In this document: positions 25,839 to 64,000 of the stretch, piece by piece
Layout of the letters: every line of letters begins with the position of its first letter
Numbering within the stretch: position 1 is the stretch's first letter
Source: an uncultured Clostridia bacterium
GTDB lineage: Bacteria; Bacillota; Clostridia; TANB77; CAG-508
DNA length: 64,000 nt
Assembly (NCBI GenBank): GCA_947626605.1
Contig: CANQSV010000003.1
Location: 68,356 to 132,355 of the forward strand
Direction of reading: 5' to 3'
Position numbers and translations under genes: made by a program
The notes under the pieces: model-generated
What the model was told of the DNA's origin: nothing
The model's database searches: none
What the model saw: the letters and a program-made list of their open reading frames with translations, nothing else

Positions 25839-26273
25839 TTATTCCTTATATATTTTTTGTAATAAAGCCTCTTCTAGTGTTTTTGAAAAGTTTATTTTCA
25901 AAGTTTCAGCTTTAGCATTAATCCATTTTGGAATATTAACTGTCTTTTTTACTAATTCCTTGCCCCATTTTTCTGCAAAAGAACTTACATCCACTGCTAT
26001 ATATGTTTTAAATTTTGAAATATACTCCCAATTTTCTATATTTAATTCTTTCTCTAATTTTTCAAATGTTATATCTTCAATTTTGCTTGATTTAGGTATT
26101 TGATTATTTTCTTCCATTTCATCAAGTACAATACCAGCAATTAAATCTTCCGCCATTGACATTGCTTCTTCTAATGTGCTACCGCAAGTAGATTTATTCT
26201 GCAAATCCGGAACAAAAACAGAATATCCTCCTTCTTTTTCCTCGTAAAACAAAACTGGATAAATTGCTTTCAT
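25839..26273 (-). CDS. hicB: Type II antitoxin HicB
   Basis: 144 aa. N-terminal HicB fold pattern (YPVLFYEEKEGGYSVFVPDL...GSTLEEAMSMAEDLI) and a C-terminal ribbon-helix-helix-like segment. RBS GGGGAGG. Lies immediately downstream of the hicA remnant. Confidence 0.8.
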   Translation of the reverse strand: MKAIYPVLFYEEKEGGYSVFVPDLQNKSTCGSTLEEAMSMAEDLIAGIVLDEMEENNQIPKSSKIEDITFEKLEKELNIENWEYISKFKTYIAVDVSSFAEKWGKELVKKTVNIPKWINAKAETLKINFSKTLEEALLQKIYKE

Positions 26274-26307
26274 AATATACCTCCCCTATATATTTTACAA
26301 GCTGAGG

Positions 26308-26491
26308 CTATTTCACCCCCGCTTGTTTCAAGATATTGTTAAGAGTTCCTTTCGGGATATCTCCTTTATGATTTGGTACTGGTATACTTCCGTTTGACTT
26401 CTTTGTGCTTATATATGTAATGCGAACCATTAGTATGATGATGATACCATCCCTTGGAGATTAACAATTTCTCTAATTCTCGAAAAGTCAT
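26308..26491 (-). pseudogene. hicA: hicA mRNA-interferase toxin gene disrupted by a 1-nt frameshift
   Basis: ATG at 26489-26491 with RBS AGGAGG (26499-26504). Frame 0 reads MTFRELEKLLISKGWYHHHTNGSHYIYKHKEVK, then RKYTSTKS-stop at 26366-26368. Shifting by one base after GTC (at the AAA run 26393-26395) gives NGSIPVPNHKGDIPKGTLNNILKQAGVK-stop (26308-26310), the canonical HicA C-terminus. Total span is 184 nt = 3n+1. Confidence 0.8.
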
Positions 26492-26513
26492 GATGATTCC
26501 TCCTAACAATTAT

Positions 26514-26542
26514 ATTATACTACGTATTCTACGTATTGTAAA
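26514..26542 (-). promoter_or_regulatory. hicAB promoter with tandem TACGTA-containing repeats in the spacer
   Basis: On the minus strand, TTTACA (26537-26542), a 17-bp spacer, then TATAAT (26514-26519). The spacer is ATACGTAG-AATACGTAG, two direct repeats each containing the palindrome TACGTA. Confidence 0.65.
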
Positions 26543-26609
26543 CAGTTTTTTATTTTTTCTTGATATTGTTGAAGATTATATTTTTATAACATCTCTTCTG
26601 TTTTTGTTT

Positions 26610-26663
26610 GCGGGTCGTCAGTGCTGAGGCTGTTAAGGTTTCGCCTGCTGGACGCCGACCCCT
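26610..26663. other. Isolated GC-rich imperfect hairpin in an AT-rich spacer
   Basis: GCGGGTCGTCAGTGCTGAGGC-tgttaaggtttc-GCCTGCTGGACGCCGACCCC. Pairings are GGGTCG/CGACCC, TC/GA, CAG/CTG and AGGC/GCCT. About 60% GC against ~20% in the flanks. No convincing ORF. Confidence 0.5.
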
Positions 26664-26695
26664 ACAGATATTTCATATATTATAGTATCTCATAT

Positions 26696-26848
26696 AATTT
26701 TCTATGTTTTTTCGTAGCGAGCTTGTGTGGGGACCGACTAGTTAGAAACAGTTAAGAAAATATCGAAGCAATCGCTAGCGAAATTGCAAGAATATTTTCT
26801 ATACGGTTTCTACTAGTTGGGACGAGCGAGAAAAAAGCATAGAAAATT
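26696..26848. repeat. Palindromic repeat element, copy 1 (114-nt conserved core 26716-26829 inside a copy-specific outer inverted repeat)
   Basis: The core is 111/114 identical to 42413-42526. The outer IR is AATTTTCTATGTTTTTTC (26696-26713) / GAAAAAAGCATAGAAAATT (26830-26848). There are nested internal stems. Confidence 0.9.
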
Positions 26849-35596: not shown

Positions 35597-38374
35597 CTAT
35601 TTTAAAGCCTCACTACATCTCTTACATATTGTTGGATTTTCCTTATCTTCTCCTACAGTTTCAGAGTACATCCAACATCTTTCACATTTCTCTCCTGGTG
35701 CTTGCTCAACTTTTACTCCTATCTCTACTTCTTCATCATCATTTCTTCTGTTTCCACTTACTTCAACAGCAGATACAATAAATATTTGTTTTAATAAATC
35801 TTCTTTATCTTTTAAGAATTCATAATCTGGCTCTTCCACATATATTGTTACTTTTGCATTTAATGAATGTCCTATTATTTTTTTATTTCTTGCAATTTCT
35901 AATTCTTTAGCAACCTCATTCTTTATTTTAATTAATTTTTCCCATTTTATTTCTAGTTCACGATTATCATACTCAGGATTTTCTTTTGGATAGTATGCAA
36001 GCATAACACTATCTAGTTTTTCTCCGTCTGGATGTGGCATATATTGCCAAATTTCATCTGCAGTATATGATATCATTGGTGCTAAAATTCTAACTAGCGC
36101 TTGTAATATATTATACATAGTTGTTTGTGCAGCACGTCTTTTTAAATCATTAGGTTTTGATGTATATAATCTATCTTTTATAATATCTAAATAGAAATTG
36201 CTCATTTCTACAACGCAGAAATTATTTATTGCTTTATATGCCTTATTAAATTCATATCCATCAAATGCTTTTGTACATTCTTTAACTAATTTATTTAATT
36301 TTAATAAAGCCCATTTATCAATTTCTTCTAAATCTTTGTATTCTACTAAATTATTTACATCTAAGTCATATATATTTCCTAATATATATCTTGCAGTATT
36401 TCTTATTTTTCTATATACTTCCATAACTTGTTTCAATATTCCTTTTGAAATATGAACATCTGAAGTATAATCAGCAGATAATGCCCATAATCTAACTATA
36501 TCTGCTCCTGATTCATTAATAACTTCTAGTGGATCTATACCATTACCAAGAGATTTAGACATTTTTCTTCCTTGCTCATCTACTGTATACCCATGAGTTA
36601 CAACTTCTTTATATGGTGATATACCTTTTGTTGCAACAGAAGTTAACATTGATGATTGGAACCAACCTCTGTATTGGTCACTTCCTTCTAGGTAAAGGTT
36701 TGCTGGTGGTAATCCTCTTTCAACTAGTACAGATTCATGTGTTGAACCTGAATCAAACCATACATCCATTATATCTGTTTCTTTTTTAAATTTAGTACAA
36801 CCACAACTACATTTTGCACCATCTGGTAATAATTCTTCAGCTGGTAAATCAAACCATGCATTGCTTCCTTTTTCTTTAACTATTTTTTGAACCTTTTCAA
36901 AACTTTCTGGTGTAGCATATTCTTTTTCACAGTCTTCGCAATAGAATATTGGAATTGGAACTCCCCAAGTACGTTGTCTTGAAATACACCAGTCATTTCT
37001 CTCTTCTACCATTTTAGTGATTCTTTCTTCTCCCCAACTTGGATACCATTTAACTTGTTTAATTGCTTCTAAAGTTGGTTGTCTAAAATTATCTACTGAT
37101 GCAAACCATTGATTTGTTGCTCTAAATATTATTGGTTTTTTACATCTCCAGCAATGTGGATAAGAGTGAACAATTTCTTCTTTTTGAAGTAATAGTCCGT
37201 TTTCTTCTAGCCATTCTACTATTGCTTTATTAGATTTGGCATAATACATTCCTGAAAATGGTCCAGCACCTTCTGTTTGCATTCCTTTACTATTAACAGT
37301 TACTACTATTTCTAAATCATTCTTTAATCCACACAAATAGTCTTCTTTACCATATCCAGGTGCAGTATGAACAGCTCCAGTACCTGTATCTAATTCAACA
37401 GGAAGTGTGTCATCACTACCTAAAACTACTCTTGATGTTCTATCTAAGAAAGGATGTTTACACAAAACTCCTTCTAATTCTTTTCCTTCAAATTCTTGTA
37501 ATTTTTTATAATCTGTAATTTCTGCTTGATTCATTACTTTTTCAACTAATTCAGAAGCTAATATTAATTTTCCTTTATTTGTTTCAACTATAGAATATTT
37601 ATATTCAGGTCCTATTGTTATTCCCATATTTCCTGGTAAAGTCCATGGTGTTGTAGTCCAAATTACGAAATAAGTATTTTCTACATCAAACAACCCTTTA
37701 CTATCTGATACTGGGAACTTAACAAAAGCTGATAAAGATTTATGATCTGCATATTCTATTTCGGCTTCTGCTAATGCTGTTTCACAATCTGTACACCAAT
37801 AAACAGGCTTTAATCCTTTATATATATACCCCTTATTATACATATCAGCAAAAACTCCTATTTGCTTTGCTTCCATTTCTGATTGATATGTTATATATGG
37901 ATTTTTCCAATCTCCTAAAACTCCTAAACGTTTAAATCCATCTATTTGCAATTGCATATATTTTTTATTGAATTCCTTACATGTGTCTCTAAATTGTGAT
38001 ACTGACATTTCTTCTCTGTTTAAGCCTAATTTTTCAATAGCTTTTTTCTCTGTTGGCATACCATGTGTATCAAAACCTGGTATAAAAGGAGTATCAAAAC
38101 CTTGTAAGTTTTTGTAACGAACTACTGCATCTTTTAAAACTTTGTTTAATGCATGTCCTATATGAATCTCACCATTTGCATATGGAGGTCCATCATGAAG
38201 CACAAATGGCTCTTTTCCCTTATTTTTTTCTAACATTTTTTCATATAAATCTTTTTCAAAAACATTTTCTAAAATTTGGGGTTCGTTTTCTGGTAAATTT
38301 CCTCTCATAGGGAAATCTGTTTGTGGTAAATTTAGTGTTTTGCCATAATCTTTTTTCTCACAGTTATCACACAT
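35597..38374 (-). CDS. ileS: Isoleucine--tRNA ligase
   Basis: 925 aa with PPYANGEIHIGH (HIGH) and KMSKSLGN (KMSKS) motifs, a CP1 editing domain and a C-terminal zinc-binding CxxC pairs region. Confidence 0.95.
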   Translation of the reverse strand: MCDNCEKKDYGKTLNLPQTDFPMRGNLPENEPQILENVFEKDLYEKMLEKNKGKEPFVLHDGPPYANGEIHIGHALNKVLKDAVVRYKNLQGFDTPFIPGFDTHGMPTEKKAIEKLGLNREEMSVSQFRDTCKEFNKKYMQLQIDGFKRLGVLGDWKNPYITYQSEMEAKQIGVFADMYNKGYIYKGLKPVYWCTDCETALAEAEIEYADHKSLSAFVKFPVSDSKGLFDVENTYFVIWTTTPWTLPGNMGITIGPEYKYSIVETNKGKLILASELVEKVMNQAEITDYKKLQEFEGKELEGVLCKHPFLDRTSRVVLGSDDTLPVELDTGTGAVHTAPGYGKEDYLCGLKNDLEIVVTVNSKGMQTEGAGPFSGMYYAKSNKAIVEWLEENGLLLQKEEIVHSYPHCWRCKKPIIFRATNQWFASVDNFRQPTLEAIKQVKWYPSWGEERITKMVEERNDWCISRQRTWGVPIPIFYCEDCEKEYATPESFEKVQKIVKEKGSNAWFDLPAEELLPDGAKCSCGCTKFKKETDIMDVWFDSGSTHESVLVERGLPPANLYLEGSDQYRGWFQSSMLTSVATKGISPYKEVVTHGYTVDEQGRKMSKSLGNGIDPLEVINESGADIVRLWALSADYTSDVHISKGILKQVMEVYRKIRNTARYILGNIYDLDVNNLVEYKDLEEIDKWALLKLNKLVKECTKAFDGYEFNKAYKAINNFCVVEMSNFYLDIIKDRLYTSKPNDLKRRAAQTTMYNILQALVRILAPMISYTADEIWQYMPHPDGEKLDSVMLAYYPKENPEYDNRELEIKWEKLIKIKNEVAKELEIARNKKIIGHSLNAKVTIYVEEPDYEFLKDKEDLLKQIFIVSAVEVSGNRRNDDEEVEIGVKVEQAPGEKCERCWMYSETVGEDKENPTICKRCSEALK

Positions 38375-38395: not shown

Positions 38396-38657
38396 ATAAA
38401 ACAAAAAATCCATTTCAGTCATTTAGGACGAAATGGATTTATATTTCCGCGGTACCACCTAATTTAAAAATAATTTTCTTGTAAATTATTTTTCACTCGA
38501 ACTCTTTAACGCAGATATACGTCTTAAATTACTGCACTTTTCATTTAAGCAACCATAAGGTGATAATATACATACTATTCTTACTGGTTCTCAGCAAAAT
38601 CCAGTTCTCTGTAAAGTATTCATATATATATTGTATCCTTATCTTTGTTTTTCGTTT
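38396..38657 (-). promoter_or_regulatory. T-box riboswitch leader of ileS (candidate specifier AUC, Ile)
   Basis: The minus strand shows the conserved T-box AATTAGGTGGTACCGCGG (38448-38465). It overlaps a terminator AAATCCATTTCGTCC..GACTGAAATGGATTTTTT (38403-38440). The Stem I region has AGAGA and GCTGAGA motifs. A candidate specifier ATC-A lies at 38562-38564. Confidence 0.85.
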
Positions 38658-42389: not shown

Positions 42390-42547
42390 AACATGATAAT
42401 TATATTATTTTAAGCGAGCTTGTGTGGGGACCGACTAGGTAGAAACAGTTAAGAAAATATCGAAGCAATCGCTAGCGAAATTGCGAGAATATTTTCTATA
42501 CGGTTTCTCCTAGTTGGGACGAGCGAAAATAATATAATTATCATGTT
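42390..42547. repeat. Palindromic repeat element, copy 2 (core 42413-42526 inside a perfect 22-bp outer inverted repeat)
   Basis: The core is 111/114 identical to 26716-26829. The outer IR is AACATGATAATTATATTATTTT (42390-42411) / AAAATAATATAATTATCATGTT (42526-42547), 22/22 complementary. Confidence 0.9.
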
Positions 42548-44354: not shown

Positions 44355-44879
44355 CTATTTTTCTCCATTTATAATCTTTAATATTTCTTCATTATTTTGT
44401 AATCTTGGGGTTGCATAAATAATAGTTTTTTTATCTCTTGTTATTGCTTCTTTCATTACTTCTTCATCATCTCTAAGTTCTTTACTTGCATATTTTACTA
44501 TTATTGGTTTGTTTTTTACTGCCTCCAAAACAACATCTTTATCATTTCTTAGATTTTTTGATGCATAATATAATCCTTGACCATTGCCTTTTACACTATT
44601 TAGCATTACATCTTTATCATCTCTTAGTTTTTCAGAAGCATAACATACTGTCCAAGGTGCTGTTTTTAAGGCTTCTAAAACAACATCTTTATCATCTTTT
44701 AGTTCATCACTTACAAATTCCAAGGCTCTTCCGTCTAATTTTAATGCTTCCATTGCTATTTCTTTATCATTTTGTAATCTTTCACTTATATTTTCTATTT
44801 GCATTGGATCTTCTTTAATTACTTGCATTATATATTCTTTATTATCTGTATTCTTCATAAATTCTTCTGTATCTATCAT
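44355..44879 (-). CDS. DUF4116 repeat protein
   Basis: 174 aa with four or five tandem repeats of ...ASxxLRDDKDVVLEAVKxxx.... Confidence 0.75.
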   Translation of the reverse strand: MIDTEEFMKNTDNKEYIMQVIKEDPMQIENISERLQNDKEIAMEALKLDGRALEFVSDELKDDKDVVLEALKTAPWTVCYASEKLRDDKDVMLNSVKGNGQGLYYASKNLRNDKDVVLEAVKNKPIIVKYASKELRDDEEVMKEAITRDKKTIIYATPRLQNNEEILKIINGEK

Positions 44880-49883: not shown

Positions 49884-49892
49884 ATGTTTATA

Positions 49893-50236
49893 GAAGTAAA
49901 TCTGTAAGCCGGGTTCTGTCTAGAATAGCCATTTATCTAGGATATATATTACTATATACCTCAAGCCACCAATTCAAAAAGACACCGAGCAGGCTTAATC
50001 TTTTTTATTAGGTGTTGCTCCAGATGGGGTTTACATGGTCCCAGTATGTCACCATACCAGCGGTAAGCTCTTACCTCACCTTTTCATCCTTACCTAAACT
50101 TTAGGCGGTTATTTTCTGTTGCACTTTCCTTAAGGTTTCCCTCACTGGACGTTATCCAGCATCATTGCTCTATGGAGCCCGGACTTTCCTCTCGTACAAC
50201 CTTGCGGTTTATACCAGCGACTATTCAATTTACTCT
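49893..50236 (-). ncRNA. rnpB: RNase P RNA (bacterial type B)
   Basis: The minus strand contains the universally conserved GAGGAAAGUCCGGGCUCC (P4 5' strand) and ACAGAACCCGGCUUA (P4 3' strand). P1 pairing is AGUAAAUUG / CAGAUUUACU at the two ends. About 344 nt. Confidence 0.92.
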
Positions 50237-63904: not shown

Positions 63905-63932
63905 ATAAACGGGAGACCGATGGTCTCCCCTA
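63905..63932 (-). terminator. Terminator hairpin for a minus-strand gene lying beyond the window end
   Basis: GGGAGACC-gat-GGTCTCCC, followed on the minus strand by GTTTATTAT. Confidence 0.5.
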
Positions 63933-64000
63933 CATTTGTTCTATATTTTGCTGTCATTCTCATAATTTTAAAATTTAATCTAATAAAACAATCTTATTGC

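Follow-up and report, generated by a model that had tools for sequence, protein, structure and literature searches.

A family of palindromic hairpin repeats with a constant internal loop in uncultured gut Clostridia

Two copies of a nested hairpin

We analysed a stretch of 64,000 nucleotides (nt), hereafter the window, from an uncultured Clostridia bacterium (assembly GCA_947626605.1, contig CANQSV010000003.1, forward-strand positions 68,356 to 132,355), in which a long non-coding palindrome occurs twice. Copy 1 lies at the dprA locus; copy 2 lies between the stop codon of an ATP-binding cassette (ABC) ATPase gene (42566) and the start of a permease gene (42365/42374), antisense to the operon. 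The two copies belong to an undescribed repeat family in a clade of uncultured, AT-rich gut Clostridia, in which membership is set by the fold and a small constant centre, not by conserved terminal sequences. The parts of both copies are listed in Table 1, where the + strand of copy 1 is defined as the strand with GAGCTTGTGTGGGGA. Sequences collected from outside the window are cited by their labels (L001 and so on) where these are needed.

As the first-pass annotation of the window had reported, a core at 26716-26829 is repeated on the same strand at 42413-42526, 15.7 kb away, with 111 of 114 positions identical. Searching the window with a 32-nt probe gives the two cores and nothing else, against no match in 100 shuffles, and fuzzy searches with either conserved motif revealed no third copy there. 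Each core is enclosed by an outer inverted repeat. That of copy 1 has 18 pairs between AATTTTCTATGTTTTTTC (26696-26713) and GAAAAAAGCATAGAAAATT (26830-26848), with one additional C in the 3' arm, and that of copy 2 is perfect (22/22, 42390-42411 against 42526-42547); the two are unrelated in sequence. The complete elements are 153-158 nt long and contain no open reading frame (ORF) for a transposase. Stops occur in all six frames within the 114-nt core and the ORF map of the window has no ORF of at least 50 amino acids overlapping either copy, in agreement with the earlier statement that the element is not coding.

Both copies are predicted to fold, on both strands, into one long rod of nested stems (RNA z scores -7.0 to -10.2), much as had been proposed for the core. 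The RNA folds of the + strand have energies of -53.7 (copy 1) and -61.0 kcal/mol (copy 2), with z scores of -7.0 and -8.5 and none of 200 shuffles as stable; with DNA parameters the z scores are -6.7 and -8.5. Three substitutions separate the copies (T26742G, A26779G and A26812C). The compensatory replacement of a T:A by a G:C pair, noted previously, is real, in that the new G of copy 2 at the first of these positions pairs with the new C at the third, but it is weaker than claimed: the 5' arm has one additional base at 26742, where copy 1 has T, copy 2 has G and the orthologue L002 has C, and in copy 2 the T next to it is left as a bulge.

Table 1. Parts of the two hairpin copies and an adjacent repeat in the window
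Feature	Position	Strand	Support
Copy 1, whole hairpin (P1, conserved asymmetric loop, P2)	26696..26848	+	covariance model R1, 81.4 bits, E 4e-17
Copy 1, P1 5' arm AATTTTCTATGTTTTTTC, pairs with 26830-26848	26696..26713	+	identical at four other loci
Copy 1, loop 5' strand: AGC (pairs with GCG 26826-28), then GAGCTTGTGTGGGGA	26716..26733	+	invariance in 21 elements, AGY/RCR covariation
Copy 1, inner hairpin P2; base CCGAC 26734-38 : GTTGG 26816-20, invariant G·T	26734..26820	+	
Copy 1, loop 3' strand, GACGA then GCGA	26821..26829	+	GTTGGGACGA invariant in 21/21
Copy 1, P1 3' arm GAAAAAAGCATAGAAAATT	26830..26848	+	sequence
Copy 2, whole hairpin	42390..42547	+	R1, 89.8 bits
Copy 2, P1 5' arm AACATGATAATTATATTATTTT, 22/22 duplex with 42526-42547	42390..42411	+	homologous to P1 of L002, L041, L043
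Copy 2, core (loop strands and P2)	42413..42526	+	111/114 identical to 26716-26829
GC-rich, GTAG-tagged REP-like hairpin GTAGGGGTCGGCG...CGACGACCCGC	26610..26665	-	beside many copies in rabbit-gut genomes, not part of the element

A family with a shared plan

An exact-match scan of 185,579 species genomes returned nine loci in three uncultured Clostridia metagenome-assembled genomes (MAGs), two from rabbit and one from chicken, and a two-anchor scan of metagenome contigs added 23 loci from human gut, alpine shrew and other sources. Together these represent 21 distinct elements in about ten subfamilies from rabbit, chicken, human and shrew gut. All share one plan. The outer stem P1 is AT-rich, is 18-34 bp long and differs in sequence by subfamily. 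It is followed on the 5' strand by AGY-GAGCT(N1-2)GTGTGGGGA, in which GAGCT and GTGTGGGGA are invariant in the 21 elements around a variable linker of 1-2 nt, an invariance that is partly by construction, as the elements were fetched with exact-match patterns taken from the same motifs. The helix base CCGAC:GTTGG, with its invariant G·T, has five pairs that are unchanged in 21/21; it carries the inner hairpin P2, whose distal pairs covary and whose distal part and length vary between subfamilies. The 3' strand reads GACGA-RCR and runs into the 3' arm of P1; the constancy of GTTGGGACGA in this strand is again in part a product of the search, as the motif served in fetching the elements.

The pairing between AGY and RCR covaries, with C:G in the window lineage, T:A elsewhere and a change from G:C to A:T in L021. 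A direct repeat, AGCGAG, had been noted on the two sides of the loop; it is not conserved, and in the consensus AGY-GAGCT... faces GACGA-RCR with AGY pairing with RCR. Units are usually about 150 nt long and reach about 200-250 nt where they have additional outer stems. Across the subfamilies, outer stems follow a common theme, being AT-rich with a T-run adjoining the loop.

Covariance model R1 recovers all 21, with scores of 77-148 bits. MAFFT alone misaligns the variable stems, and the covariation figures were taken from a subset alignment and from the R1-fitted alignment. In the latter, which leans towards the modelled structure, 24 of 38 pairs have changed on both sides and 94% of cells are paired (no match among 500 shuffles); pairing drops to 43-47% when partners are slid by 1-3 columns. 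The MAFFT alignment of eight subfamily representatives gives 18 of 38 consensus pairs changed on both sides, again with no match among 500 shuffles, and its pairing falls from 91.7% to 40-48% with slid partners. Maintenance of the hairpin by compensatory change, first suggested from the two window copies, therefore extends across the family.

A weaker R1 match (28.7 bits, E 0.001) was seen at L021:159-289 on the minus strand. The 3' motif of this long hairpin, GCAGGTTGACGAC, is similar, but its 5' side has no GAGCT...GGGGA strand; the hairpin may be distantly related to the family or may belong to another repeat.

The description of the palindrome as unrecognised was upheld by database and literature searches. 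At the gathering threshold Rfam 15 identifies only RNase P RNA and a T-box in the window and nothing on the element, and at E<=10 the element yields only matches to generic miRNA-type hairpin models. BLAST searches of plasmid and phage collections gave no match to the core. A scan of viral contigs gave two matches, both in GC-rich coding sequence lacking the rest of the motif, which we take as chance, and a full-text literature search for the conserved motifs returned unrelated primer sequences only. 6S RNA, Y RNA, signal recognition particle RNA and self-cleaving ribozymes were considered separately and rejected, as they give no Rfam signal and as the copy number and contexts misfit.

The outer stem belongs to the element

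The first-pass annotation pictured a 114-nt core nested in copy-specific inverted repeats, and on this model only the core is mobile, inserting into the loops of existing hairpins, with the outer stems as its target. The outer repeats are present as described, but they prove to be subfamily-specific parts of the element and not copy-specific flanks. The 153-nt unit of copy 1 is also found at L004, L007b, L009, L044, L045 and L049, and its outer stem (P1-A) is identical at L004, two sites of L007, L009, L044, L045 and L049. At L004 and both L007 sites the flanks are unrelated to those of the window. Because the P1 of copy 1 recurs unchanged at loci with unrelated flanks, we regard the outer stem as part of the element.

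Filled and empty sites bear on the same question. Where the element is present, the spacer between the ABC ATPase and permease genes is at least 191 nt, compared with 18-49 nt in relatives whose permeases are 73-81% identical. None of these empty spacers contains the 22-bp arms or a long palindrome, although the relatives are too distant for the exact ends to be fixed. No closer empty site came to light at dprA, where every close relative carries the element and the genes alongside differ in those further away. Among the collected sequences, none had an outer-stem hairpin without its core.

The copies are also mosaic. Copies 1 and 2 have 97% identical cores in unrelated outer stems, and L007a shares the outer stem, loop and P2 base of copy 1 around an unrelated P2 tip. 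Both observations speak for insertion of the core alone, as does a REP-like hairpin with palindromic inserts in its loop (described below). It is because such hairpin-in-hairpin nesting occurs in these genomes that the core-insertion model keeps some weight. Nevertheless, P1-A accompanies the core to at least four unrelated loci, the empty ABC sites show no long palindrome, solitary outer stems were not encountered, and the AT-rich, T-run theme shared by the outer stems of the subfamilies is what would be expected of diverged homologues. We consider the model quite improbable.

In their distribution the elements behave as dispersed repeats. One rabbit MAG has them at five loci: four 153-nt units share the P1 of copy 1, three of them with cores that are 99-100% identical and the fourth (L007a) with a different P2 tip, and the fifth (L002) has a different P1. 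A second rabbit MAG contains three complete, near-identical 197-nt units with an additional outer stem and one further copy cut by the end of the stretch, and one metagenome has three copies that are 88-90% alike. Several independent short-read contigs end within the element (L041:1, L042:1, L046-L048 and the ends of L050, for example ...CTCGCTCGTC). The element, or its occurrence in two orientations, breaks assemblies, as is expected of a dispersed repeat.

The copies neighbour dprA, hicB, ABC-transporter genes, smpB, fba, gap and pgk. When the ORFs lying up to 3.5 kb from each copy were all compared with one another, no gene recurred besides orthologous housekeeping neighbours, and no transfer-messenger RNA was found adjoining the smpB-linked copies. 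No transposase or recombinase was recognised beside the copies or among the translated ORF starts of the window, on which no domain search was run. No direct repeat that could represent a target-site duplication flanks the five P1-A copies or the units of the second rabbit MAG.

Inversion at orthologous loci

The element is found in both orientations at two of four orthologous loci, in different samples or strains. At the ABC locus the core is antisense to the operon in the window, L040 and L042, and sense in L002, L041 and L043. The permease of L041 is identical to that of the window, and the two sequences have only seven differences in about 2290 bp of coding region downstream (99.7% identical), against ten within the 27 nt adjoining the element. 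The two ABC alleles differ further in the ends of P1, which read CATG in the window and CTAG in L002, L041 and L043, in both arms, and by indels in the outer spacers. In the gap-pgk spacer the orientation in L013 and L032 is opposite to that in L020, and the flanks are about 91% identical. A single orientation is seen at the copy-1 locus (window, L009, L044, L045 and L049) and at the smpB-fba locus (12 contigs and L010). Relative to the flanking genes, six loci are antisense and three sense, and the rest lie between convergent or divergent genes.

Rearrangement between inverted repeats is expected where arms are long and complementary, and the simplest reading of the flips is recombination or template switching between the arms. 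A dedicated inversion switch is less likely. Such a switch, or inverton, would have a site-specific recombinase flip the segment between the outer inverted repeats and so change the content of the operon transcript. The inverted repeats that bracket the segment, the occurrence of both orientations at the ABC locus (where adjacent genes are 99.7% identical) and in the gap-pgk spacer, and the contig breaks within the element are all compatible with this. Against it, copies 1 and 2 have outer repeats with no relationship in sequence, which makes a single recombinase site unlikely, and the interior is itself palindromic, such that flipping changes only about 15 nt and the apical loop. There is no promoter inside, and no recombinase gene was recognised near the copies or in the window ORFs (inspected without a domain search). 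The copy-1 locus (five contigs plus L009 and L049) and smpB-fba (12 contigs) keep one orientation, and the additional differences between the ABC alleles, in indels and P1 ends, fit rare arm-to-arm recombination better. We therefore find an inverton very improbable.

Possible readings: a mobile hairpin or a host RNA

We put at a little better than even the chance that this is a new family of non-autonomous, structure-defined mobile hairpin repeats. The moving unit would be the whole hairpin, comprising P1, the conserved asymmetric loop and P2, and the constant loop with its G·T would probably be the recognition site of a protein supplied in trans and acting on a folded single strand. Folded DNA seems somewhat more likely than RNA as the substrate, given the free orientation of the element with respect to transcription and arms that pair almost exclusively in Watson-Crick fashion. 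Transposition would not be of the DDE cut-and-paste kind, which the absence of target duplications argues against; a strand-specific mechanism, involving either a single-strand nuclease of the IS200/IS605 type (HUH/Y1) or a site-specific recombinase, would be a better fit. The long arms may recombine or template-switch with each other and with other copies, which would explain the flips, the clean complementarity of the arms and the mosaic structure.

A stronger proposal, which we consider unlikely, is that the constant loop is the recognition or cleavage site of a structure-specific enzyme that moves, flips and re-nests hairpin modules. If true, the family would represent a class of mobile element set by its fold and internal loop, with no conserved termini or target duplication and with hairpins nested in hairpins, a nesting that the adjacent REP-like elements show too. 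A variant of this reading would have the element domesticated as a protein-binding RNA in some lineages.

Several observations weigh against mobility of this kind. Neither a mobilising enzyme, nor a parent element, nor an excision or insertion intermediate was seen, and mobility is deduced from distribution alone. The empty ABC sites come from fairly distant relatives and do not fix the exact ends or the origin of P1 there. The 97% identical cores in unrelated outer stems are awkward for simple transposition of the whole unit and call for gene conversion or nesting. In the human-gut lineage the element occupies one locus, smpB-fba, in all 12 contigs and is apparently single-copy. This element is about 97% identical to that of a sister lineage, compared with about 88-92% for the adjacent smpB and fba DNA, and the spacers are poorly conserved and scrambled; the pattern looks like purifying selection on a host function and not like a selfish repeat. 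Finally, the + strand is more stable than the - strand in 21 of 21 elements, which would fit a strand-specific RNA; the invariant G·T and the G-rich loop account for most of this difference.

These points lead to the main alternative, a structured RNA with a function in the host. It could be a protein-binding non-coding RNA or a cis-acting element of mRNA affecting termination, processing or stability, with the purine-rich asymmetric loop as the binding site and the additional copies as gene duplicates. Strong covariation around an invariant loop is what such an RNA would show, and the invariant wobble pair, G·U in RNA, lies on the more stable + strand. The element is more conserved than flanking genes in the smpB-fba lineage, between the window and L009 and between the window and L002, and at L010, L025 and L028 the genes on either side are convergent, both stop codons lie 32-33 nt from the element, and a T-run follows the hairpin. 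Other features are difficult to reconcile with an RNA: orientation relative to transcription is not fixed and flips occur at orthologous sites within operons, the genomic contexts are unrelated, near-identical copies lie at unrelated loci and break assemblies, and no Rfam family matches. Promoter-like and terminator-like sites around both copies are at or below shuffle expectation. With the invariant G·T left out of account, arm mismatches scored as wobble or A·C give no clear strand bias. A host RNA is somewhat unlikely in our assessment, and free orientation together with clean complementarity inclines us to favour recognition of the DNA, or else a hairpin that functions in either direction. 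Of the three candidates named at the outset we retain two, a structured RNA and a mobile element or recombination element whose folded single strand is recognised.

Two further observations concern strand and loop geometry. About 55 of the 60 window ORFs are on the minus strand and the G-rich loop strand of both copies is on the opposite (+) strand; the gene-strand bias suggests that the window is part of one replication arm. GUUGG-GAC-GA opposite GA-CCGAC could, on paper, be read as a kink-turn.

REP-like hairpins and other features of the window

Many copies in the rabbit-gut genomes have as neighbours GC-rich hairpins that fit the definition of GTAG-tagged repetitive extragenic palindromes (REPs) and are frequent in intergenic regions of these Clostridia MAGs. 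The window has such hairpins, which combine GTAG with a palindrome when read on the minus strand (for example GTAGGGGAGACCATCGGTCTCCC), at 63911-63933 as well as at the position in Table 1; others lie in L003, L005, L006, L007, L009 and L049. A 2013 survey reported GTAG REPs in Proteobacteria, Cyanobacteria, Chloroflexi and the PVC group and did not mention Firmicutes (PMC3733652). The REP-like hairpin at dprA differs in size among three sequences. In L049 (2190-2220 region) it is short (GTAGGGGTCGGCGTCCTCGACGACCCG), in the window a 30-nt insert occupies its loop, and in L009 (4210-4500 region) the loop insert is palindromic and about 50 nt long. The arrangement is that of one hairpin inside another's loop.

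In the second rabbit MAG (L003:7586-7738, L006:232-384, L001:1-59 and L005:941-1093) the 197-nt unit TARTAGAG...TCTATTT abuts a REP-like ...CCTAC in three of four copies, and in two copies another REP-like hairpin follows, ending in (C/G)TAC. The unit and the REP-like hairpin may form a composite unit, or the latter may mark a preferred insertion point.

Next to copy 1, a gene for a HicB-like antitoxin (25839-26273) and about 340 nt upstream of it (26274-26610) are present in the window, L044 and L045. L049 and L009, in which DprA is 97% identical, lack both between dprA and a thiF-like gene. Upstream of the HicB-like gene, the minus strand has no ORF of at least 50 amino acids with the size of hicA, and a near-consensus promoter-like site, TTTACA-17-TATAAT, occurs at 26542-26514 on that strand. 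Elsewhere in the window, the ORF at 44355-44879 (-) contains four tandem 75-nt coding repeats (44454-44777) encoding 25-residue units ...LRDDKDVVLEA..., with a similar array in L002. A class A RNase P RNA is found at 49889-50236 (-, 297.9 bits), and a T-box leader at 38421-38654 (-, 112 bits) lies upstream of an ORF (35597-38374) resembling isoleucyl-tRNA synthetase.

Significance

Small dispersed hairpin repeats are common in bacteria, and for most families no mobilising activity or host role is known. An invariant internal loop with a G·T, set in freely changing stems, is an unusually clean signature and offers a handle for finding the protein that recognises it. Flipping at the strain level and swapping of modules within essential operons (gap-pgk and the ABC transporter) could alter the processing or stability of mRNA. 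The family also breaks short-read assemblies at predictable points.

Comparison with known systems

In behaviour, the family is closest to repeats resembling MITEs (miniature transposable elements with inverted repeats), such as ERIC/RU-1 of Enterobacteria, Correia/NEMIS of Neisseria and bcr1 of the Bacillus cereus group. ERIC, Correia and bcr1 are intergenic palindromes of this MITE-like kind, each with a long hairpin as its fold (reviewed in PMC3184786 and PMC2229807), and in bcr1 compensatory changes keep the structure (PMC3184786). The elements described here are likewise 100-200 nt long, without an ORF, intergenic, often within transcription units and folded into a long stem-loop, and there are several copies per genome whose number and positions differ between relatives. 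As in MITEs, they are short (less than about 400 bp), contain no transposase ORF and occur at several unrelated loci, present or absent between relatives. The signatures of MITEs are terminal inverted repeats and flanking direct target duplications, TA for ERIC and 5 bp for bcr1 (PMC3184786). Unlike these, neither the five P1-A copies nor the second-MAG units have a target duplication, the terminal arms differ wholly between copies of one genome, and the constant part is an internal asymmetric loop; no conserved terminal repeats matching a parent insertion sequence were seen in the window or beside the copies.

A second set of likenesses, familiar from work on IS608 and on the REP-associated tyrosine transposases (RAYTs), is to REP/RAYT systems and IS200/IS605 ends: a definition by a hairpin with a short constant motif in place of long conserved ends, stems that differ between species and no target duplication. 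Many copies here also have REP-like GTAG hairpins next to them. For these systems, in which RAYTs are Y1 transposases of IS200/IS605 type, recognition as folded single-stranded DNA is the established mechanism, and REPs are GC-rich, 20-40 bp long and end in a GTAG or CGTC tag (PMC3733652). The family elements are AT-rich, 150-200 nt long and carry their constant motif internally, and so fall outside the REP definition. Moreover, no Y1 transposase gene was recognised beside any copy or in the window ORFs, which were read without a domain search, and the human-gut and other-lineage elements have no REP neighbour. We also considered a CGTC-tagged REP, as the minus strand reads CGTC-CCAAC..., and rejected it on stem and loop sizes that misfit the definition.

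Integron attC sites are imperfect palindromes of variable sequence and length, recognised by structure as one folded strand; their conserved boxes are short, unpaired bases mark the strand, and the terminal structure varies. The present family resembles them in having a folded strand that would be recognised by structure, short conserved boxes and variable terminal structure. The attC boxes, RYYYAAC and GTTRRRY, are at the outer ends, and the sites form arrays at cassette boundaries with an adjacent intI. Here, by contrast, the conserved CCGAC/GTTGG lies inside an outer stem of 18-34 bp, the copies are scattered between housekeeping genes and neither the window nor the surroundings of the copies revealed an integrase, and on these grounds an attC site was ruled out.

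Invertons such as those of Clostridioides difficile flgB and cwpV share the size of 100-200 bp, inverted repeats of about 20 bp and the occurrence of both orientations among close strains; the family differs in its palindromic interior, in repeats that vary between copies, in the single orientation of most loci and in having no recombinase or promoter that we could find. UAGCGAG beside the outer stem resembles the priming region of retron Ec86, and most family members have AGUGAG there; a retron msr-msd was rejected for want of a reverse-transcriptase neighbour and of an Rfam msr match. A CRISPR array was also rejected, the two copies being 15.7 kb apart with genes between them.

The family therefore resembles known structure-defined systems yet falls outside their definitions in size, in the position of its motif and in its associated genes. 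If an enzyme does act on its folded single strands, the family would provide a Firmicute example among the few structure-guided DNA transactions, beside IS200/IS605-RAYT and integron attC.

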